DNA of 33,265 nucleotides, from NCBI GenBank assembly GCA_964347045.1, contig CAYFXC010000019.1, positions 1-33,265 of the forward strand, in the 5' to 3' direction. Position numbers and translations under genes: made by a program. The DNA is from an uncultured archaeon (GTDB taxonomy: Archaea; Asgardarchaeota; Hermodarchaeia; Hermodarchaeales; Hermodarchaeaceae). Positions 1 to 15,918 of the stretch are shown piece by piece; positions within the stretch are counted from its first letter, which is position 1, and every line of letters begins with the position of its first letter. The notes below the pieces were generated by a model that saw only the letters and a list, made by a program, of their open reading frames with translations, was not told where the DNA came from and did not search any database.

Positions 1-15
1 AACAAGAGGAATCGT

Positions 16-53
16 GCTATTCTGACACTTTTGCATGTTATTGTGACACTTTT
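16..53. repeat. Tandem 17-bp direct repeat with 21-bp period (GYTATTSTGACACTTTT x2)
   Basis: 16-32 GCTATTCTGACACTTTT vs 37-53 GTTATTGTGACACTTTT, 15/17 identical; core TGACACTTTT at 23-32 and 44-53. Confidence 0.75.
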
Positions 54-73
54 TGGCAGAATACAATGGTTAT

Positions 74-195
74 TGCATAATCTGGAGTTTCCCCGTGGTG
101 ATACCTTGGGAGACTTATGTGCGGTAAGGAGTCTGGGTATATAAATCCGAGAACACGGGTGTTGCACTTTGGTGGGGTGGACGACCATTTCTTTT
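74..195 (+). repeat. Structured non-coding repeat, copy 1 (ncRNA-like or recombination-site-like)
   Basis: Shares ordered blocks with 1092-1216: GATACYTTGG (100-109), TGTGCGGTA (118-126), AACACGGGTGTTG (152-164), TGGGGTGGACGACCA (173-187), then a T-rich tract. Confidence 0.8.
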
Positions 196-215
196 AGGTG
201 TATTTGGGTTAGTGA

Positions 216-1019
216 TTAGGCAAGTTTTGTGGCTTCGATGGCTAGGGAATGGGGGATTTTGTGGTGTTTTGCCATGGGAGGATGGGCTTTGATACCTTTT
301 TTGGTGGGTTGTGGTTCGTCGAGTTGGGTTATTGTGAAACCGTGGGTGGTTAGGGTTTTCATGTATTCGGATAGGGGTCGGTGGTATCCGGTGGTTGTGA
401 AGGGGGCGGGTAGTCGGTTATGTTTCCATTCGAAAGGGTAGCTATGGCTTTGGAGATAGTTGGATGTCCAGTTGTAGAGGTACTCTTTCGTTCCGTTTCG
501 ACGTGTGCGGGTTTTCCATCCACTTACTTGTTTTCCGTTCAAAACGCGCCAGAGTGAAAAACAGGGGTGCGCAAGTACAATGACGAGTCGTCCCTTTGGT
601 TTCAGAATGCGAGCGATTTCGGCAATTGTTCCCGCGTAATCGTGTATGTCCATTATCGCCATGTAACAATAGGCAACATCGAAGTGTTGCGATTGGAGCA
701 TGTGGAGGTCCGCAGCATCAGTGGCATAGTATGTGATGCCTAACGGATGGCGTTTTTCCTCAGCTATTGCAGCTTGTATCAGTGCTTCACTAATGTCAAT
801 TGCCGTAACCTTTGCACCGGCCTTTGCAAAAAATCGGGCAAAACATCCCTCGCCACAGCCTATATCCAACACTTTCATCCCCGCCACATTCCCCATCAAT
901 TGTATAAGGGCAGGACCATTCAAATGTTCGGAGTAGTAGTTCTTTCCACTTCGCACGAATTCTACCCAACTTTCGGCAGCCTTATTCCACTGCTCCCTAT
1001 TACCTTCACCAGATTTCAA
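216..1019 (-). CDS. Class I SAM-dependent methyltransferase
   Basis: Motif I VLDIGCGEG, AIDIS motif II, FDV..., RILKPKGRL; TTG start. Confidence 0.9.
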   Translation of the reverse strand: MKSGEGNREQWNKAAESWVEFVRSGKNYYSEHLNGPALIQLMGNVAGMKVLDIGCGEGCFARFFAKAGAKVTAIDISEALIQAAIAEEKRHPLGITYYATDAADLHMLQSQHFDVAYCYMAIMDIHDYAGTIAEIARILKPKGRLVIVLAHPCFSLWRVLNGKQVSGWKTRTRRNGTKEYLYNWTSNYLQSHSYPFEWKHNRLPAPFTTTGYHRPLSEYMKTLTTHGFTITQLDEPQPTKKGIKAHPPMAKHHKIPHSLAIEATKLA

Positions 1020-1091
1020 ATGATCAACTCCGGGTGTTTTAGCACTTTGTAATAAATCTATAGTGTACTCAGAAAAGTACCTGCCTAAGAA

Positions 1092-1216
1092 TGCATTTCT
1101 TCTGAGGTGTCCCTCGCAGGGATACTTTGGAAAGGGTGTGCGGTAGAAAGCGGGTGTATGTTGCCGGAAACACGGGTGTTGAACGCTTAGTTGGGGTGGA
1201 CGACCACTTTTTCTTT
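1092..1216 (+). repeat. Structured non-coding repeat, copy 2
   Basis: Blocks GATACTTTGG (1121-1130), TGTGCGGTA (1137-1145), AACACGGGTGTTG (1169-1181), TGGGGTGGACGACCA (1192-1206); 15-bp + strand hairpin 1100-1132. Confidence 0.8.
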
Positions 1217-1240
1217 GTAACCTAATTTGGCTAGCTAGAG

Positions 1241-1402
1241 CTATTTTTCGTTGAAATTTAGAATTGTGAGAAGTTGTTTAGCCTGTTTTTGGTCTGAAAT
1301 TTTTCGAACAATTTCCTTGATTTCATGTCCTGTTATTAGATAAAGGTTGAAGAATTGTGAAGAATTGTCCCAACGAGGATGGGCGTTGCTGTAGTATCTA
1401 TA
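1241..1402 (-). pseudogene. Possible 3' remnant of a gene ending just before repeat copy 2
   Basis: Start-less open frame YRYYSNAHPRWDNSSQFFNLYLITGHEIKEIVRKISDQKQAKQLLTILNFNEK*, bounded upstream by TGA; protein-like amphipathic pattern only. Confidence 0.3.
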
Positions 1403-1531
1403 TCAGCGATACTAGTCCTCCTCTTTTGAAGGGATTTGCTAGTGTGAATATGGTGTCAACTTAAGTTTCTGGAAAAGCTTGATTTTGTGGTTATTTTGAT
1501 TGCAGATAATGAATGATTTTAAATTTCAGCA

Positions 1532-1801
1532 TCATGGCCACAACAAATCGAGAAATCGAATAATGCTGTCTAAAATTCCTGCGGGGATTATACCGATTGC
1601 TGCTAGTAGGCTGATTATAGTTAATGGAAGCATGATAATGTTGATTATAATGAAATAGCGCCAAAAATCTTGGCGGGAAACTTTGTTTATCTTGTATAGG
1701 ATAATCGCTCCTACGAGCATTATGAGCCAAAGTGCAGCAAAGAAATAGAGTCCTATGATCGGATGTCCAAGGTTATATATTTGGATTAGAAAGTCACTCA
1801 C
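1532..1801 (-). CDS. Small membrane protein, 2 TM, hypothetical
   Basis: 89 aa, two long hydrophobic segments separated by a basic loop. Confidence 0.65.
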   Translation of the reverse strand: MSDFLIQIYNLGHPIIGLYFFAALWLIMLVGAIILYKINKVSRQDFWRYFIIINIIMLPLTIISLLAAIGIIPAGILDSIIRFLDLLWP

Positions 1802-2040
1802 ATCCTGATTCCTTTTAGTGATTAATGTTTTTTAGACTTGTGTGGGCTTGAAATAGTGATTGGCCATGCTATCAAATATGCAAGAATAACATAATATTGT
1901 TAAGATTCCGTGTGAATATAAACCGATAATTAGCGTATAGTTTAGAATTTTGCCTAATTTAAATAACTTCTGTTTGACTAAATCTGAGTAAAAAAATCCT
2001 GACTCCTATTATCAAATAGACAAACCGCTTAAAGTATTTT

Positions 2041-2517
2041 TTATTTTGTTTTTATTATTTCAGTATCTGCGTACCTTCCTGTCATAAAGCGAATGATCTT
2101 CCATTGATCATCTGATGAGAGTTGCCAGATTTCCAGAAGTCGTCCGTATACTTTCTCAGTCGGTCCTCCGTTAAGAGGTGTACGTACCTCGATGAAACTT
2201 CCAAGTGCATGGGCTCTGCGTTCATATAAATCGATGAGTTCTCGATTTGGACTAAAAGAGTCTGTCGTGTACTTTGAAATAATGTTGTCAAAGGCCTGTT
2301 GGATAGATTCTCGACCTATGATGTCTTCCGTATGAGGGAACATGAGACCTGCGTCTTCAGCGAAGAAATTACACATATCTTTTGCGCGATCCTCGGAAAA
2401 GGTTCGATCGAGTTCTGCGTTTGTGTTTAACAGAGATTCTTTGTGTAAAACACGCAAGTTGGATAATCCCTGGTCTTCTTTTTGAGACATTTTTTCAGGA
2501 TCGAAATTATTTGGCAT
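2041..2517 (-). CDS. NTF2-like/SnoaL (DUF4440-like) protein
   Basis: FFAEDA.L.......IIGRESI, C-terminal W.L..D..WKI pattern. Confidence 0.75.
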   Translation of the reverse strand: MPNNFDPEKMSQKEDQGLSNLRVLHKESLLNTNAELDRTFSEDRAKDMCNFFAEDAGLMFPHTEDIIGRESIQQAFDNIISKYTTDSFSPNRELIDLYERRAHALGSFIEVRTPLNGGPTEKVYGRLLEIWQLSSDDQWKIIRFMTGRYADTEIIKTK

Positions 2518-2765
2518 ATTATCAACTTTATTAGCTTTCAGAGATAATATTTACTCAATTATGTGAATAGCAAAAGGAGTATGATAATTTCTTAGAAAAT
2601 TAGATCTGGTTTGCAAATACAGAATGTACGATTTGTTTTGTTTTAGGAGAATTAATCCTGCGTTCACAAACTAGCTAGTCTTCAATACTCGAAACTAGGT
2701 CTAAATCGATGATCTTATCGGCTTCGATTTCGTAGATTTTTTAATATATCTCGATTTTTCTTTCA

Positions 2766-3689
2766 TCACGAGTGTGTAGATTTTTTGTAGCTTCGACGAA
2801 TAAGCAAAACCACAACCGCTGAAATTAGCGATATTCCAGCAACAGCAATAATGGTTTTTATGAGTGAGTCATTTTGCAAACCTAAAGGAGGTTCTGGGTT
2901 CCAATTATCATAATTATTTAGAATAACAACATCACAGTCTGCTAGTTCTGTGAATCTTTGTGCATCAAAATAACTACCTGTGAAATCATTGTACCCATTC
3001 CACCCATAATGCATTGGAATTGCATACCTTAAATCAGATTGAATCTTGAGGTCTTCAACTGAATCTGCAGCCTCTGAAGCGGTCATCCACGCATACCCGG
3101 AGACAGGCAGGAGGGCAATATCTGTGGTAATGGATTGCATTTCAGGTATGCGATCTGTATCACCAGCGTGATATATTCGTAATGTGCCAAAATCCATGAT
3201 TACTCCCAAACTTTGGTGTTCAGGTGGATGAAAGAGATTTCCATCTGGTCGGTGTTTATTAACATTATAGGCAGGAACGAATTCAAAGGTGACACCAGGA
3301 TAGGTTAAAGTTTCACCAGGTTCAACTTGAAGATTCCAGCCCGGTGTTTGAGTAGAGGTGATGACAACGGTATTAGCATCGGTTATTTGAGCAATGTCCC
3401 CCGATGAATAATGTGGTCTGTGGTCATGTGTGATTATAATAAAATCCGCAAATTCAGTTATCTCGGGCAGACTAATTGGATCAATGTAGACGACTGTGGT
3501 TGCCGATTTGAATTTGAATCCTTCGTTGTAAAACCATCGGATACTCACACCATTATAGGTAAATTCGTTTCCCGCTTGGATAACCACTTTTGCCGTCACT
3601 GTTTGCTCTAGGTTCATATTAATGAGAATTACCAAGAAGAAAACTATGATGAGAGTGAAATTACGAGTACCTGATTTCATTGGATTCAC
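2766..3689 (-). CDS. Membrane-anchored MBL-fold metallo-hydrolase (UPF0173-like)
   Basis: VYIDP, ITHDHRPH, YHAGDT, ALLPVSG, IPMHYG; N-terminal signal peptide and C-terminal TM with basic tail. Confidence 0.85.
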   Translation of the reverse strand: MNPMKSGTRNFTLIIVFFLVILINMNLEQTVTAKVVIQAGNEFTYNGVSIRWFYNEGFKFKSATTVVYIDPISLPEITEFADFIIITHDHRPHYSSGDIAQITDANTVVITSTQTPGWNLQVEPGETLTYPGVTFEFVPAYNVNKHRPDGNLFHPPEHQSLGVIMDFGTLRIYHAGDTDRIPEMQSITTDIALLPVSGYAWMTASEAADSVEDLKIQSDLRYAIPMHYGWNGYNDFTGSYFDAQRFTELADCDVVILNNYDNWNPEPPLGLQNDSLIKTIIAVAGISLISAVVVLLIRRSYKKSTHS

Positions 3690-3821
3690 CGATTCTCAAA
3701 ATGAGATTAATGTACATATATTCTTTGAAACCAGAACCTGCACTTTCTAATGGAAAATCATGTGAATTTGCCCTGAAACGGAACAAAGTGGTTCTGTAAA
3801 GTTCTTTTTAGGTCTGACTTT

Positions 3822-4178
3822 TTAGCTGTTTGAAGGATATAGAGCTGCACCAATAAGGATGAGCAGTCCAGGAATTGTACCCGTAAATATCATTCCCACA
3901 ATTCCTGTCGTGATCAGTCTTTTCTTGTGCTTTGGAATATCATGACGCCACCGAAGCCAGATAGCGGCAAGTATGAGCCCAAATATTCCTGCAAATGTTA
4001 GAAAACCTAGTAAGAGGGCTGTCCACCACCCGAAAGCAGCCCAAAAAAGCGGGTCTATGAGGACCGGCCATAAGAGCCACAACATCCATACGTTAATTAA
4101 TATGATGAAGATCGAGAAAGGAATTTGAAGCCACGCCCCTGCATTGGTCAGTGTCGAAGGCGTTTCTGTATCTGTCAT
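3822..4178 (-). CDS. Small membrane protein, hypothetical
   Basis: 118 aa, 3-4 hydrophobic segments, C-terminal G..PGLLILIGA. Confidence 0.7.
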   Translation of the reverse strand: MTDTETPSTLTNAGAWLQIPFSIFIILINVWMLWLLWPVLIDPLFWAAFGWWTALLLGFLTFAGIFGLILAAIWLRWRHDIPKHKKRLITTGIVGMIFTGTIPGLLILIGAALYPSNS

Positions 4179-4301
4179 TTTTTCATCTCGAGTTTTTATT
4201 CCTTCGTTATAATTTAAAATCTTCCTTATGTGGCTTTAATATTGATTTTACTTCAAACACTACAAGAATTTCTAATGAGTGATCAAGATGTTGGGGGCAA
4301 A

Positions 4302-6341
4302 TTATTCTGTTATCTTTCTTCTTTTTCGAATTATACAAACACTCGCGACTACGACAGAGGAAATAATGGTAATAATGGCAATGCTGCCTGCGACAATTCC
4401 ATTTGTTGGATCTATTCCTATCATGAATGTATAATATTCTCCATTACGTGTATCTTGCACAATGTTGTCATTATAGTCTTGCACTTCAATATAGAAAAGT
4501 ATCTGAGATCCTGCAGGAAATGGGCCTATATCCGCACTAAATATGTCAGATTCAATCAGGAATAATCGTCGGTGTTTCCAATACGAGTTGTCTATGCTGA
4601 ATATGACTTGGACATTGTAGATGTCTGCGCCTAGTGGGTTTTGGGTTATTCGGGCTGATACTTGAATAGTGGTTGTTTCGAAGGGCTGTCGGGGCCAGAA
4701 TGAAACCTCTAGAATTTGGGGGAGATATTGTACAACCTCAACGTAAACTACAGAGGTGTTCGTATATCCATTTGCATCTATTGCTCGAACTTGGATACTA
4801 GTGGATCCATTTCCGGTGACGGTCCAATTATAGAAATAGCGTTTATTGAAGATGTGAGTTGAGGCCAAACGCCATTTTGTATTATTAATATTGACTTGAA
4901 CAGCTACTATAGGGTAACCGTCAAGATCGGATGTATTTATCCAAATTGTGTATGGTGTGCCTTGAGGGATTTGGTCGCCTGAAGAAGGAGAAGTAATGGC
5001 ACAATTGAGACCTTTATCAACTCGAAAATTACGGTGAGCGTGAGTCATCCAACCAGCTGAGTCAAAGACTCGTGCACGGATACTTGTCAACCCATATACC
5101 CCAGTAGCATTCCAGTAATAGGTAGAATGAGTGGAGTTCATTCCCGTGGTGATATCAATCCAAGGGGCATTATTTATTGAAAGTTCAACTTTGTTTACAT
5201 CATTATGTGAATCAGAAATTTCTAAAACGAGAGGAACATTGTCCGTTGGTGGGACAAACTGTGTTGGGGTTGGTGGAACAAACGCCACATTAGGAAATCC
5301 TGGAATTGTTGATACAATGGTGGCGAAATCAGCTAGAGCCGCTGCTGCATTTTTTGTCACTTGTGTTCCTAATTCAAAGGAGTAATCCGGTTGGTTTAGG
5401 GCATCGGCTGAGGAATGAATATACGGATTGCCAAGACCCCCATATTCAAAGAACCACACTGCAGGATCGTTATAGTTCCAAAATGGTGAATGATCACTCA
5501 TTGTTAAGCCAGGAGCGTAGCGAGTGCTAACAGGCAGATTATAAGCGAGTCCAATGGTTTCAGCATGGGTGGCCAAAACTTCACTTGCACCCCCATTGTG
5601 AATGATTTCATATTTTGTATCTACAGGGGCGGATGGATTGTCCCAGATTATCATATCGAAATTGTAGACAGAAGCAATAGGTATGTTACTATCATGAAGG
5701 TAATCGGCAAAAGCACTGCTTCCAAATAATCCGATTTCCTCTGCGTCAAATGCAACAAAATAAAAGGTGTAATTAAATTGATATCGGGAAAGAACCCGAG
5801 CGATTTCAAGAACCGCTGCGACGCCGGAACCATTATCATCGGCTCCTTTTGAGGATGCAGGAAAGGTGTCGTAGTGTGCTCCTACAACGATACATTCGTT
5901 ATTATGGATACTTGCTCCTGGAAGTTTTCCCACCACATTAGTGGCAGATGATCCAAATTCCTGGAAGGAAACCTCTAGCCCTGCTTCTTCAAATTGCTGA
6001 GCAATATATTCAGCTGCTTGTTCATTTCCCTCAGTATCATAGACTCTACTGCCAATAGTGTTTGATAGATGGTTTAGATAATTTTGAAAGCTGGATAGAG
6101 AAATTTGATCAATTATTGCAGGTATTGGAACTGGTTCTTGTGGCTGATAGTTCTCCTCAAATATATAACTTGAAGATAATGGGTGTGGCAAGTATTGAGA
6201 GCTGCTTGTTTCTTGTGAAATAGGAGCTATCTGCGTTTCACTTGTCTGATCTGTTACAGCGTTGAAGGTAGGGGATGGATTGAAAAGGGCAACACCCATG
6301 ATACAAAATGCCAGAATTAAAAATGTAAACTTTCGATTCAA
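4302..6341 (-). CDS. Secreted, membrane-anchored M28 family metallo-aminopeptidase with Ig-like domains
   Basis: GAHYDT, GADDNGSG, DAEEIG, NFDM, SDH, YIHS motifs; signal peptide; beta-rich repeats (Y.WN.T....I.ARA.D..G); C-terminal TM + RKRRK. Confidence 0.9.
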   Translation of the reverse strand: MNRKFTFLILAFCIMGVALFNPSPTFNAVTDQTSETQIAPISQETSSSQYLPHPLSSSYIFEENYQPQEPVPIPAIIDQISLSSFQNYLNHLSNTIGSRVYDTEGNEQAAEYIAQQFEEAGLEVSFQEFGSSATNVVGKLPGASIHNNECIVVGAHYDTFPASSKGADDNGSGVAAVLEIARVLSRYQFNYTFYFVAFDAEEIGLFGSSAFADYLHDSNIPIASVYNFDMIIWDNPSAPVDTKYEIIHNGGASEVLATHAETIGLAYNLPVSTRYAPGLTMSDHSPFWNYNDPAVWFFEYGGLGNPYIHSSADALNQPDYSFELGTQVTKNAAAALADFATIVSTIPGFPNVAFVPPTPTQFVPPTDNVPLVLEISDSHNDVNKVELSINNAPWIDITTGMNSTHSTYYWNATGVYGLTSIRARVFDSAGWMTHAHRNFRVDKGLNCAITSPSSGDQIPQGTPYTIWINTSDLDGYPIVAVQVNINNTKWRLASTHIFNKRYFYNWTVTGNGSTSIQVRAIDANGYTNTSVVYVEVVQYLPQILEVSFWPRQPFETTTIQVSARITQNPLGADIYNVQVIFSIDNSYWKHRRLFLIESDIFSADIGPFPAGSQILFYIEVQDYNDNIVQDTRNGEYYTFMIGIDPTNGIVAGSIAIITIISSVVVASVCIIRKRRKITE

Positions 6342-6455
6342 AGAAACTCCACATTTGATAACTATAGAATTTAAAGTAAAACTTGATTGTTTTATGCTTT
6401 ATTGATATTACATAGAAAATCTTTACTGGTAAATTTACATGCTTCTTTTGGTATT

Positions 6456-6944
6456 TTACTTCTTATGTATTAGTAATGTAAGAGAACGTTGAATGGTTTG
6501 ACGCATTGAAGGATTTAAAGCCCGTCGCATTAGTTGTTGTAATGGTTCAATGGCTCTGGAATCTCCTAGCTGCCCTAATGCATAGGCTGCAGCCACACGA
6601 ACTTGAAAGTTGGCATCATTTAGTCGATCAATTAGTGGAAGCACGGCTTCAGTATCACCAAGCCGACCAAGTTCACGACAGGCCACCATTCGAGCACCAG
6701 GATCATTACTGCGTAAGCGTATCAACACTGGTGCAAGGACCCAATCCGCACCAACTTTTTCAAAGGCTTGAACCACGGCTTTTCGAACAAGTGGTGAACT
6801 GTCGTGCATAGCTATGCCAAGGGCTTCGTAGGCTGGTCCATTTCGCATCGCACCCAATTCAGAGACAGCGCGAGCTCGTTCATGAGGGTCTGGGTGGGTT
6901 TGCAAAATCTTAGCTAATGAATCAATTTTCTCAGGGTCAATCAA
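6456..6944 (-). CDS. HEAT (PBS-lyase-like) repeat protein
   Basis: Repeated L.D....VR..AA.ALG.LGD..A..PL units. Confidence 0.85.
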   Translation of the reverse strand: MIDPEKIDSLAKILQTHPDPHERARAVSELGAMRNGPAYEALGIAMHDSSPLVRKAVVQAFEKVGADWVLAPVLIRLRSNDPGARMVACRELGRLGDTEAVLPLIDRLNDANFQVRVAAAYALGQLGDSRAIEPLQQLMRRALNPSMRQTIQRSLTLLIHKK

Positions 6945-7415
6945 AACCTACACCCTTCACATTGATACATCATAACCATCGGTTTTCTTACGTAAAAAGC
7001 TGTGTGGCGGATTGTAATGTTTAATAGTTTTTCTAACTTTTAATTAATTATAGTTCTAGGGCTCATTGACTTGGCTTAAAAATGTAGTTAGGGAATGGTG
7101 GAGCGGGTTACAGATATTTAGAACGCCTATTTGATGATATTAAGAACCTAGTGATACCACCTTGAAATGAAATAGCAGAGCTGTTCTAGCAGTTGCTTAG
7201 AGTGTATTTTTATTAGGTGATTTGTGAATTCGAAAGTTAAACTTTAGAGTACGAATTCAGATTGTGTATATGACTGTAGGTTTTGAGGAAAAAACGTATT
7301 GGCCTTTTTTCCCGAAGAAACTCTTGATACGAGCTAACGGTTATTAAGGCTTCTAACATCGGCAACTCTCATAAAGGGATAACCATTTAATCTGGTTAGA
7401 TTGATGTGATGCCAT

Positions 7416-7745
7416 ATGAATGAAGCAAAAAACGGTGATACCGTTCGTGTACACTATGTTGGGAAATTTCCTGGTGGAAAAGTGTTTGACACTTCTTTAG
7501 AGAAAGAAGCAGTTCGAGCAGGCATCTACAATAAAGGGCGGGATTACAAACCTCTTAAAGTAACTTTAGGTGCTGGACAAGTCATCAAAGGCTTTAACGA
7601 TGCTATTGTCGGTCTTAAACCCGGTGAAGAAAAAACCGTGGTCCTGCCTCCTGAACAAGCCTATGGTAAGAAGGGCAGCCATCCTATGGCAGGAAAAACC
7701 CTTGAGTTTCGAATTATACTCGTAGATATCATTGATAATGACTAA
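7416..7745 (+). CDS. Archaeal-type FKBP peptidyl-prolyl isomerase (short form)
   Basis: GDTVRVHYVG, VFDTS, GAGQVIKGF, PPEQAYG, HPMAGKTL. Confidence 0.9.
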   Translation: MNEAKNGDTVRVHYVGKFPGGKVFDTSLEKEAVRAGIYNKGRDYKPLKVTLGAGQVIKGFNDAIVGLKPGEEKTVVLPPEQAYGKKGSHPMAGKTLEFRIILVDIIDND

Positions 7746-13653: not shown

Positions 13654-15918
13654 TTGAGGATCATGAGTGGGGAACTGAAAGAACAGTCTATCCTAGGTCA
13701 AATCATCTGGCGAGTATTAGTAGTTCTTTTAACCATTTTTGGATTGTACTTCATCCTCATACCTATATGGAACGTAGGCACTGTTCAGGTTGGACTCCAT
13801 ACTCTTCTCGCTTTTCTTGCGATTATTGGTGTAGGTGTGGTTAGTTTTGATATTCGTAGGAAAAATGTAACTTGGAAATTTATTTTGATGTCCGTTTTTC
13901 TCTTCACTGCAATTGTTAATTTTGTCACGGCAATCTGGCACCTTTATCCTGCCTATTACACCTCTGAATTATACGAAATTACTGCAGATCTAATTGAAAT
14001 GATGTTGCTTGGTCTGATTATCCTTGGAGCTATGATACCAACCAAGTTCACACAATCCGAAATGGAAGTAAAACGAGGTTTGGTCTTTCTATCTCTTTTG
14101 ACCTTTGGATCCCTTCTCATTTACGGGGTTTTGTACTATTTTCTTTTACCTATTGCTCTATTTTTCGACCCACTTTTACCAGGAATGGGATTTGGGGTTA
14201 TCTGTATAGCAATATTTATCGTGAGTTTCATCATCCTGGCTCGACAATCTAAAATTCTTCACCGATATAGTGCTGTCTTTTTCATTTCCGGTCTCATTAT
14301 AATGATGAGCTCAATTGCTGGTCTAATTATTTCATACGTTATACCATTTTCCCTTCTAGCAGCCTCGATTATGCTTCGAGCAGCAATGATGTATTTCTTT
14401 TTTGTTTCAGTTGCGATACCAGTTCAAAAAGAAATTGAAATCACTGAAGATAGGGCGCATCTCTTTGGATCATTACTAGCACTACTTGCCCTGATTCCTT
14501 ATGCTCTTACTTTGTTACTTGTCGCATTTGTTCCTATTACATTGATATTTCCTGAACAGGGCATCTACACTCTGACACACGTTATTGTAGCGTTTCTTGC
14601 CGCAATTATAGTACGACTTTTATGGTTGTTTACAAAACAACAGCCCCATTGGCATCGATATCCACTAATAATGGCCTTTGTTTCCTTGACTATAGTAGAA
14701 TCCATAATTGTTTTTCTTAGTCCGTGGGTTGAAGTATCTGGCGAATACACTCTCCTTTATGTCCTTGCTGGGTTATTGGTGGTCTTTTGGCTGTATCTTA
14801 CTTTACGATGGATTTACAATACTCCTACGAGAATGAAACATGAATCCATGATACGATGGATAGTATATATTTCAACTTTAATGACCATTATTATTCTTGC
14901 AGGCGTTTGGTTACAAAATTACCTCTTTCTAGTTCTTCCGCTGACCATAATTCAACTCCTTTTTCGAAGTATTCTTCTTGCTGTGTGTCTCATTGGTACA
15001 TCATTTCTTGCATATCTGTTTATTATCTTCATTCAGATGTCAAAAGGCAAACCTACAATGGGATTCATTGTTTTAGGAACCCTAGCCCTTTGGCTTATTG
15101 CGAATATCATCAGAGTTAATTTCATCGATTGGACAGCAGGTTGGTGGGTAGCTCAATTTCTAGTACTCTTTGGGTTCATGCTTGGTCCGTCAATACTAGG
15201 AAGACTCTATCTAACCGCTCTTGAACAGTCTGAGCGGGAGCGAAAACGAGCAACCCTTTACGCAGATATTCTCATTCATGATCTTCGCAACTATCACACA
15301 GTAATCCAAACTTCCCTAGACCTTCTAATGCTCTCACAGGATCCGACAGAAGCTGTTGATGTTGTTACAGATAATATTCAAACAGCTATTACTCGTGCAG
15401 GTCAATTGATCACCAATGTTCGAAGCCTTGAATTGGCTAGCAATTTACAATCACAGGATTTAGCTCGAATAGATATCGTTTCGGTAATTCATGAAGCTTG
15501 GGAACATATCCAAGACCCTGATGAAGAGATAACTCAGTTTGAGATAAACCGTCAACCCAATGAGTGCTTCGTACAAGCCAACGAGCTACTTCTCGAGGTC
15601 TTCATTAATTTATTCAGGAATGCACTACAATATTCTGAAGAAGTAAAACGCATCCAGGTAGATATTCACCCTCTTGAACAATTTGCGCAACAATATTGGA
15701 AAATCCGAGTATTAGACTGGGGAAAGGGAATTCCTGCTGAACAGAAGCAGAAATTATTTAAGCGATTCACAGAAGGAGCCAAGGGTCTCGGTTTAGGTTT
15801 ATATGTAGTAAAATCTTTGATTGAAGCGTTTGGTGGGTCGGTTTCTGTGGAAAATCGTGTGCCAGATGATGAAAGCCAGGGAACAGTCTTCATTATCAAA
15901 TTATTACGTTTAACCTAG
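13654..15918 (+). CDS. Multi-TM sensor histidine kinase
   Basis: H-box ILIHDLRN, N-box EVFINLFRNA, G1 DWGKGI, F-box LFKRF, G2 GLGLGL; ~16 hydrophobic segments; start may be ATG 13663. Confidence 0.9.
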   Translation: MRIMSGELKEQSILGQIIWRVLVVLLTIFGLYFILIPIWNVGTVQVGLHTLLAFLAIIGVGVVSFDIRRKNVTWKFILMSVFLFTAIVNFVTAIWHLYPAYYTSELYEITADLIEMMLLGLIILGAMIPTKFTQSEMEVKRGLVFLSLLTFGSLLIYGVLYYFLLPIALFFDPLLPGMGFGVICIAIFIVSFIILARQSKILHRYSAVFFISGLIIMMSSIAGLIISYVIPFSLLAASIMLRAAMMYFFFVSVAIPVQKEIEITEDRAHLFGSLLALLALIPYALTLLLVAFVPITLIFPEQGIYTLTHVIVAFLAAIIVRLLWLFTKQQPHWHRYPLIMAFVSLTIVESIIVFLSPWVEVSGEYTLLYVLAGLLVVFWLYLTLRWIYNTPTRMKHESMIRWIVYISTLMTIIILAGVWLQNYLFLVLPLTIIQLLFRSILLAVCLIGTSFLAYLFIIFIQMSKGKPTMGFIVLGTLALWLIANIIRVNFIDWTAGWWVAQFLVLFGFMLGPSILGRLYLTALEQSERERKRATLYADILIHDLRNYHTVIQTSLDLLMLSQDPTEAVDVVTDNIQTAITRAGQLITNVRSLELASNLQSQDLARIDIVSVIHEAWEHIQDPDEEITQFEINRQPNECFVQANELLLEVFINLFRNALQYSEEVKRIQVDIHPLEQFAQQYWKIRVLDWGKGIPAEQKQKLFKRFTEGAKGLGLGLYVVKSLIEAFGGSVSVENRVPDDESQGTVFIIKLLRLT

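Follow-up and report, generated by a model that had tools for sequence, protein, structure and literature searches.

What is the structured element that stands in two direct copies, like a pair of brackets, around a single gene at the start of contig CAYFXC010000019.1 of an uncultured archaeon of the family Hermodarchaeaceae (assembly GCA_964347045.1)? The window analysed here is the whole 33,265-nt stretch of that contig, which is contig C19 of a metagenome-assembled genome (MAG) referred to as G000 (83 contigs, 88.9% complete). It has been compared with genomes of sister species (G006, G008, G012 and G014) and with a JGI contig (L083). The original prediction was an undescribed structured RNA, or a recombination site of a kind of its own. 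Both window elements are instead almost certainly displaced copies of the 3′ trailer of the 16S rRNA gene, lying within an array of gene cassettes. Joined to a nuclease as the force that drives the array, this identity forms a wider statement towards which the analysis leans, if only slightly.

The two direct copies are ~1,019 nt apart, as seen both in a reading of window 1–2400 and in an alignment of 60–230 with 1078–1250, in agreement with the predicted offset of 1017–1021 nt. Their mean column identity is 78% over the padded stretch (MAFFT), and the scores given by a covariance model (CM; E = 1e-25 to 1e-28; Table 1) exclude a chance likeness. A repeat search places the shared blocks at 135–167/1152–1184 and 167–193/1186–1212, and alignment confirms that the indels in the spacers between blocks are not multiples of three. 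Whereas these blocks of the original list stand, TGCAT and TCTG of copy 1 do not belong to the element: homology breaks at 86|87 and the stretch 1–86 recurs elsewhere in the genome, so these two blocks are part of a separate junction repeat. The limits first given (~74–195 and ~1092–1216) thus shift, with copy 1 starting at 87 and copy 2 at 1078.

Copy 1 comprises the 3′ 107 nt of the trailer and shares 81% identity with the genuine G000 trailer, rising to 87% within the variable core. Copy 2, which is 80% identical to the genuine trailer, consists of a degenerate 16S tail (1078–1086), hairpin 1, one strand of a processing stem and a T-run that reaches 1216; it opens with TACCTGCCT, a decayed form of the 16S tail TCACCTCCT. 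Hairpin 1 folds as had been claimed. The other two predicted local folds, a terminal hairpin and the mini-palindrome AACAC-GG-GTGTT, more likely correspond to stretches that, in the genuine copy, base-pair with the 16S 5′ leader.

Table 1. Positions of the trailer copies and adjoining features in the window.
Feature	Position	Strand	Remarks
Junction repeat, right end (separate multi-copy repeat)	1..86	+	ends ...AATCTGGAG; outside the trailer family
Trailer copy 1	87..193	+	5′-truncated, 16S tail and hairpin 1 5′ arm missing; allele type A; CM 113 bits
Cargo gene, class I SAM-dependent methyltransferase, 267 aa	216..1019	-	Pfam Methyltransf_11 1.5e-21, Methyltransf_25 1.6e-19
Trailer copy 2	1078..1212	+	full length; CM 122.8 bits, model positions 1-138
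Hairpin 1	1100..1132	+	15 bp, 3-nt loop, four G.U pairs working on the plus strand only; from folding
PD-(D/E)xK nuclease remnant (P0001 family)	1241..1351	-	last 36 codons and stop; profile and tblastn

The repeated unit is ~135 nt long and contains the last ~9 nt of 16S rRNA, a local hairpin, the 3′ strand of the stem formed by leader and trailer for processing, and a T-run. It is recognized as the 16S 3′ trailer because a genuine copy abuts the end of the 16S gene and because the trailer pairs with the leader. In G000, the genuine trailer is the first copy on contig C26, immediately after GGATCACCTCCT, which is the 3′ end of the 16S gene (RF01959, 330 bits), and the trailer is likewise contiguous with the mature 16S 3′ end in G008:C48, G006:C71 and L083. 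G006:C71 carries a complete 16S gene plus leader. When its trailer and leader are folded together, trailer positions 51–121 form 49 intermolecular base pairs with the 5′ leader (-104 kcal/mol vs -72 for shuffled trailers; z = -6.8), and positions 8–50 stay as a local hairpin. TGTGCGGTA, AACACGGGTGTTG and GGGGTGGACGACCA, conserved blocks of the original list, each form part of a strand of this processing stem. The G000 leader is the end of contig C33, where GTCCACC, GGCAACAC and TTTCCG, the complements of the conserved trailer blocks, are present by eye; duplex folding of the distal 75 nt of this leader, the only part assembled, against each copy does not discriminate the copies from shuffles. 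Displaced copies start 6–12 nt before the 16S 3′ end (e.g., at GGATCACCTCCT, ATCACCTCCT, TCACCTCCT or CCTCCT), and none contains more of the 16S gene.

Searches for known RNAs give no match to the element. Rfam returns five matches over window 1–3000 at E up to 10, all well below gathering scores (E ≥ 1), and none overlaps 74–1216, so that the Rfam match named as a possible refutation of the original prediction does not occur. ARAGORN detects no tRNA or tmRNA in the whole window. A search of the G000 genome with RF01959 and RF02540 returned nothing although C26 contains 630 nt of 16S, and scans of the genome for primer motifs indicate that only the 3′ part of the 16S gene is assembled.

In this genus, helix 45 of the 16S gene, just upstream of its anti-Shine-Dalgarno tail, is expanded by insertions (G000 C26, L014 ~15035–15190, minus strand; G008:C48; G006:C71). 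In all three lineages 32 nt are inserted after the GGGGAA loop; G000 and G008 have 59 nt more before the loop, and the G000 gene contains an additional 33-nt insert following CTTGCACACA. The G006 gene covers 1,478 model positions in 3,594 nt, and because of this excess it probably contains ~2 kb of introns.

Copies of the trailer are organized in arrays. A covariance model built from 7 copies (R1), used together with BLAST and nhmmer, finds exactly 8 copies in G000, all similarly oriented: two stand at the C19 start and the other six at the C26 end. Co-oriented clusters are found by R1 in 12 of the 14 same-genus genomes, with up to 11 copies per genome, and in one of four genomes of the sister genus; an R1 search of 22 genomes of other families found no clusters. 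The predicted marking of cassette boundaries is supported: the element lies just 3′ of minus-strand genes and belongs to a large set of co-oriented copies. All copies in G000 and its relatives sit in such clusters, in place of the dispersed noncoding RNA family that had been considered. The copies are mutually only 52–82% identical, and many are truncated or degenerate (r26c, r26e, r26f and copy 1).

Read as its reverse complement, C26 leads from the 16S gene past six copies and then has no strong ones for 20 kb; C19 begins with the other, junction repeat. Unfiltered CM searches of the remaining window and of syntenic contigs of sister species gave no further trailers, the segments 7207–7325 and 7437–7514 (8 bits, E ~4) not being credible, and no trailer copies were found in the sister-species contigs syntenic to 1500–7400. 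The window pair may be the distal limit of the 16S array, or else a packet that has moved into the other, junction-repeat array. Farther right, the order of genes in window 1352–7400 varies among sister species, and core synteny starts from 7416. On C26 the last copy is followed by the choline-transporter-like gene, which in G012:C32 and G014:C275, two contigs free of trailer copies, adjoins the homologue of 7416.

A second component of the array is a nuclease gene. In G008, the genuine trailer (1439–1575) behind the 16S gene is followed in slot 1 by a nuclease gene on the minus strand (1603–2862; 419 aa) and by another trailer (2898–3035) that starts at CCACCTCCT. L083 has the order 16S end, trailer, nuclease and then a trailer beginning with TCACCTCCT, and the layout of G006 is alike; the nuclease gene of G006/L083 likewise encodes 419 aa. 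L083 is of the same lineage as G006:C71, because their nucleases are 100% identical, and intact nuclease genes are thus known from two independent lineages (G008 and G006/L083). They are found only in slot 1 and always between trailer copies. Scans of genome contigs and of metagenome contigs yield a single nuclease locus each, and in a profile search of 400 genomes of the phylum, the nuclease family is confined to this archaeal family.

Pfam has no match to the nuclease, and the sequences of the Protein Data Bank give one match at chance level (E = 0.98). D276 and the pair E294-x-K296 are invariant in 12 homologues. An AlphaFold model (pLDDT 81.8) shows a C-terminal domain that resembles the cleavage domains of MspJI, AspBHI, LlaBIII, FokI and PaqCI (Z = 5.5–7.3), preceded by a small β-barrel domain. 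By its invariant residues and this fold, the enzyme linked to the array is a predicted PD-(D/E)xK nuclease.

The original prediction suspected a gene remnant beside copy 2, and the remnant is real. The coding part of the stretch, 1244–1351, has a translation ending ...ITGHEIKEIVRKISDQKQAKQLLTILNFNEK* and 58–60% identity to residues 384–419 of the nuclease (E = 1.8e-5 to 3e-5). The distance from stop codon to trailer is 29 nt in the window vs 28 nt at the intact G008 locus, and window 1079–1300 is 76.7% identical in DNA to G008:C48:1440–1662, a homology running from copy 2 into the remnant. Protein identity, the kept spacing and the DNA homology from copy 2 onward identify the remnant as the stump of an array nuclease gene. 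A stump in this place suggests an integron-like gene store made by a homing nuclease and not by an integrase.

The genes between the trailers are mostly unrelated accessory genes, without a nuclease. Those of the C26 array include genes for an ATP-cone protein, a DUF4386 protein, methyltransferases, an amine oxidase, a choline-transporter-like protein and a flavin reductase, and its cassettes recur in sister species in different orders. The methyltransferase gene of the window has its stop codon 23 nt from the end of copy 1 and probably its own promoter in 1020–1077. The encoded protein is 93% identical to a counterpart in G014:C129, where window 128–1216 corresponds to an 88% identical block inside a four-copy array; the homology stops at the T-run of copy 2 (1216). 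Identity is uneven along this block: near-complete for the methyltransferase gene, for the spacer upstream of it and for the initial 30 nt of copy 2, it falls to only ~60% in the trailer middle and is complete again over the last 27 nt; moreover, the trailer preceding the methyltransferase gene is of allele type A in the window and of type B in G014. This mosaic, together with the differing allele types, indicates that exchange occurred inside trailers. Contigs from other metagenomes that match the last 50 nt of the trailer have several different continuations after 1210–1218.

Precise loss of the ~1.02-kb unit, which had been proposed as a sign of mobility, was not detected: the public-run contigs contain no clean deletion of 1,017–1,021 nt. 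Three deletion-like joints in these contigs have sides of 21–36 nt and inserted letters, and probably stem from arrays of other organisms. Elsewhere in the window, a gene for a SnoaL-like protein of 158 aa has, for window 2072–2432, a paralogous stretch at G000:C12:5822–6182 (74% DNA identity), which is also present in sister species.

At the left edge of the window, the junction repeat stands in place of the first ~45 nt of trailer copy 1. Six contig ends of G000 carry it (the window start, the ends of C2 and C66, and the starts of C12, C44 and C46), and window 1–86 is 95–100% identical to the C2, C66 and C44 ends and 91% identical to that of C46. A 55-nt exact overlap with C44 is an overlap of assembler k-mers, and the junction repeat is the cause of the contig break at the window start. 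Across sister species the repeat is 92–97% identical, vs 65–70% for the surrounding coding DNA. Contigs from four public runs part from the window at 86|87, each with a different right flank.

Within the junction repeat, two TGACAC(T) direct repeats are 21 nt apart. Contigs from public runs X2 and X10 have the junction repeat up to position 86 joined to the 3′ part of a trailer via 6 or 24 other letters, with sides of 21–36 nt and at low depth, which hints, if weakly, that the two repeat families meet repeatedly. C44 (reverse complement 3955–4818), a possible left neighbour of the window, contains a gene for a 287-aa leucine-rich-repeat protein immediately ahead of the junction repeat overlapping the start of the window. 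In the parts of the paper that deal with it, HeimM2, a mobile element of Candidatus Heimdallarchaeum, is likewise described as pairing a leucine-rich-repeat protein with a homing endonuclease behind the 16S gene (Wu et al. 2022, Nat Microbiol; PMC8813620).

How might such an array be built? In this genus, an array of accessory-gene cassettes punctuated by trailer copies begins at the 16S gene. In the model considered here, a free-standing PD-(D/E)xK endonuclease gene would lie antisense directly behind the trailer, with a second trailer fragment after the nuclease gene serving as downstream homology. The enzyme would cut a naive 16S allele ~6–12 nt before its 3′ end, and repair from the donor would bring in the donor 16S end, trailer and cargo. 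The old tail and trailer of the recipient would be shifted one slot down and would decay there. Repeated rounds, together with ordinary homologous recombination among trailer copies, would build and shuffle the array. Copy 2 with the nuclease stump would then be a former first slot, and copy 1 with the methyltransferase gene a unit inserted ahead of copy 2 later, the left side of which would subsequently have been cut by the different, junction repeat. The displaced copies probably have no RNA function and are scars that double as recombination handles. Cleavage of the 16S end is a putative activity, predicted from the invariant D...ExK residues and from the fold matches to cleavage domains of restriction enzymes. 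The link between nuclease and trailers is an association, from which we infer a causal role.

A precedent for this model is provided by the WHO elements, which in yeasts of the genera Torulaspora and Lachancea sit downstream of FBA1 (Coughlan et al. 2020, eLife; PMC7282813). In a WHO unit, a free-standing endonuclease gene lies behind an essential host gene and is followed by a duplicated piece of that gene's 3′ end, which acts as a second homology arm. The fragments share their start position, and old 3′ ends and decayed nuclease genes are stacked so that the latest lie closest to the intact gene; the displaced fragment and the functional end are different alleles, and units can also occur off the home locus (PMC7282813). 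Similarly, the Hermodarchaeaceae nuclease gene lies directly behind its putative target and is followed by a fragment of the target 3′ end (G008 and L083/G006; in the window, trailer and stump), and the displaced fragments have a common start 6–12 nt before the 16S 3′ end. In L083 the functional trailer and the displaced copy are different alleles, as the WHO model predicts: in its core, the displaced copy is 56% identical to the functional trailer of its own contig and 85% identical to that of G000, the single clean case of this kind. Because gene position, downstream fragment, common fragment start and displaced old ends match the WHO model, nuclease-triggered gene conversion is the favoured builder of the array, with a probability that falls a little short of even.

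The two systems also differ. The target here is the end of an RNA gene and an untranscribed or processed trailer, in contrast to a coding 3′ end in WHO, and the nuclease is of the PD-(D/E)xK type, in contrast to the intein/LAGLIDADG type with zinc finger. Slots are filled mostly by unrelated accessory genes, whereas those of WHO hold nuclease pseudogenes. In addition, the host is an archaeon without meiosis, and the activity of the array nuclease is a prediction.

Several observations weigh against nuclease-triggered conversion. Intact nuclease genes are found in two independent lineages only, and one nuclease stump is found among ~80 trailer copies. The array of the sister genus has no nuclease in slot 1, a homologue being located there on a contig without a detectable trailer, and the fold matches of the nuclease are modest (Z < 8). 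The last 10 nt of 16S cannot vary, which makes the resistance of carrier alleles to cutting hard to explain. In the window itself, the pair is flanked on the left by another repeat and on the right by a variable region that is trailer-free in sister species, and its linkage to 16S is supposed. Cargo in most cassettes is unrelated and includes no nuclease, so the nuclease gene could be one more passenger. In that case homologous recombination alone would have to account for the array: DNA acquired from related species would recombine via the highly conserved 16S gene at one end and any trailer copy at the other, unequal exchange would duplicate, delete and reorder cassettes, and the nuclease would be cargo. 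We regard this as unlikely; it is nevertheless a serious rival, because the nuclease is restricted to two lineages and one stump and the cargo is mostly unrelated. It fits the mosaic breakpoints inside trailers within a block of 88–100% identity, the occurrence of the same cassettes in different orders across species, the predominance of nuclease-free cassettes and the lack of a recombinase on array contigs. Recombination alone leaves unexplained the ~12-nt limit of 16S in displaced copies, the first duplication, and the restriction of intact nucleases to slot 1 between trailers.

An integrase encoded elsewhere, or one of an unrecognized family, could also have inserted circles bearing an attP copy of the 16S tail and trailer, so that integrative elements accreted in tandem. 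The edges of the repeat unit are defined, from -6 to -12 on the left to the T-run on the right, as for attL/attR homology blocks, and the copies are co-oriented; because the junction repeat at window 1–86 is a second repeat of G000 without an integrase, an enzyme acting in trans is conceivable. However, every PF00589 match in 15 genus genomes (MAGs 72–91% complete) is off the array contigs. One PF00589 protein, conserved in nearly all genus genomes and ~315 aa long, looks from its size and conservation like a housekeeping Xer recombinase, and TIGR02249 scores, on C12 and C9, are below cut-off (90.7 vs 265 bits). Copies that are 52–82% identical are unlike the identical cores left by recent site-specific events, and crossover points are spread along the trailer. 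Tandem accretion is therefore judged improbable. No tyrosine recombinase, HUH or reverse transcriptase gene, for which the original prediction proposed to look nearby, was found linked to the array, the linked enzyme being the PD-(D/E)xK nuclease.

A third possibility, which we consider very improbable, is that the copies have a function where they lie, terminating transcription of convergent cassette genes or insulating them, or forming a family of small RNAs that mimics the pre-rRNA trailer, with structure selected in each copy. The proposed search of the genome and its relatives with a covariance model does extend the element beyond two copies and does reveal covariation. In 78 copies from relatives, 82.8% of cells of the consensus structure are paired, vs 76.1% in column shuffles and 44–55% with slid partners, figures biased towards structure because the alignment was fitted to the model. 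Changes on both sides are seen in 23 of the 26 consensus pairs (11 of 12 in helix 1), the structure is confined to the plus strand by its G.U pairs, and every copy ends in a T-run. Functional allele types A and B, however, themselves differ in hairpin 1 by compensatory changes. Since the functional trailers of different species differ by these same changes, the structure and covariation of displaced copies can be inherited from the functional pre-rRNA trailers of different donor alleles. The many truncated or degenerate copies also speak against selection in place, as do the single-sequence folds of the window copies, which are no better than shuffles (z = -0.2 and -1.5). On the minus strand, where a tRNA-like element, a riboswitch or a 5′ UTR would have to be read, the fold is again no better than shuffles (z = +0.5 and +1.2), and that reading was rejected. 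Miniature inverted-repeat elements (MITEs) and insertion sequence ends were rejected as well, given that terminal inverted repeats and target-site duplications are absent and insertions are not dispersed; the idea of a non-autonomous mobile element falls on the absence of the same inverted repeats and duplications.

In its layout the array has further parallels. Sedentary chromosomal integrons and clusters of attC sites without an integrase (CALINs) are reported in Archaea too (Ghaly et al. 2022, Sci Adv; PMC9668308). As in these, co-oriented structured repeats (60–140 nt) follow cassettes of mostly single, promoter-bearing genes, cassette content differs between close relatives, and new units seem to be added from one end. 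Unlike an integron, the array has no IntI, no R″/R′ cores and no end-to-end fold; its repeat is a copy of the trailer of a host RNA gene, and its exchange points are spread along the repeat and not fixed at a G|TT site. The attC reading was rejected on the 10-copy alignment, in which R″ (RYYYAAC) and R′ (GTTRRRY) cores are missing from the ends, as had been noted for the canonical cores at the outset, and the local 5′ hairpin stands without pairing between the ends.

Entry at the end of a conserved RNA gene is familiar from islands of another type. Integrative elements such as tycheposon islands accrete tandemly at the 3′ ends of tRNA and tmRNA genes, where partial copies of these ends separate the insertions. 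That process relies on tyrosine or serine integrases encoded by the elements and on short identical att cores. The 16S array shares the conserved RNA gene 3′ end as entry point and differs in having no linked integrase and in its long, divergent repeats.

Full-text literature searches found no description of a cassette array at 16S trailers, and the nearest case is HeimM2, an Asgard mobile element located exactly behind the only 16S rRNA gene of Candidatus Heimdallarchaeum (PMC8813620). According to the passages that concern it, HeimM2 encodes a homing-endonuclease-like enzyme, which its authors propose to give site-specific integration (PMC8813620). An Asgard element behind 16S with a nuclease gene is, to the extent of these passages, common to both cases. 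In the same passages HeimM2 appears as one 8-kb element lying between the 16S gene and a tRNA gene, with no description of repeated trailers or a cassette array, and its nuclease is of the rRNA-intron type, unlike the array nuclease family (PMC8813620).

In practical terms, rRNA annotation and binning can be led astray by displaced trailers and 16S tails. Caution is also due because the covariation of a repeat can come down from a functional parent locus and need not prove that the copies function. A broader reading, which is offered tentatively and may well prove wrong, is that this Asgard family captures genes without an integrase: a PD-(D/E)xK homing endonuclease would cut ~10 nt from the 3′ end of the single 16S gene, at the anti-Shine-Dalgarno tail, repair would exchange the tail and trailer for a donor allele bearing cargo, and the stacked old trailers would act as portable handles that move packets of genes between species and even, at window 86|87, into a second, unrelated cassette system. 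If the mechanism holds, it would provide a testable pair of nuclease and target and help to explain the poor assembly of 16S regions in Asgard MAGs. Target-duplicating homing, familiar from fungal mitochondria and the WHO elements of yeast, would also gain archaea as hosts and an RNA gene as target. The end of the rRNA gene, the most conserved sequence of the cell, would then be a landing pad for the collection and exchange of accessory genes across species, and gene capture without an integrase would operate in the archaeal lineage closest to eukaryotes.

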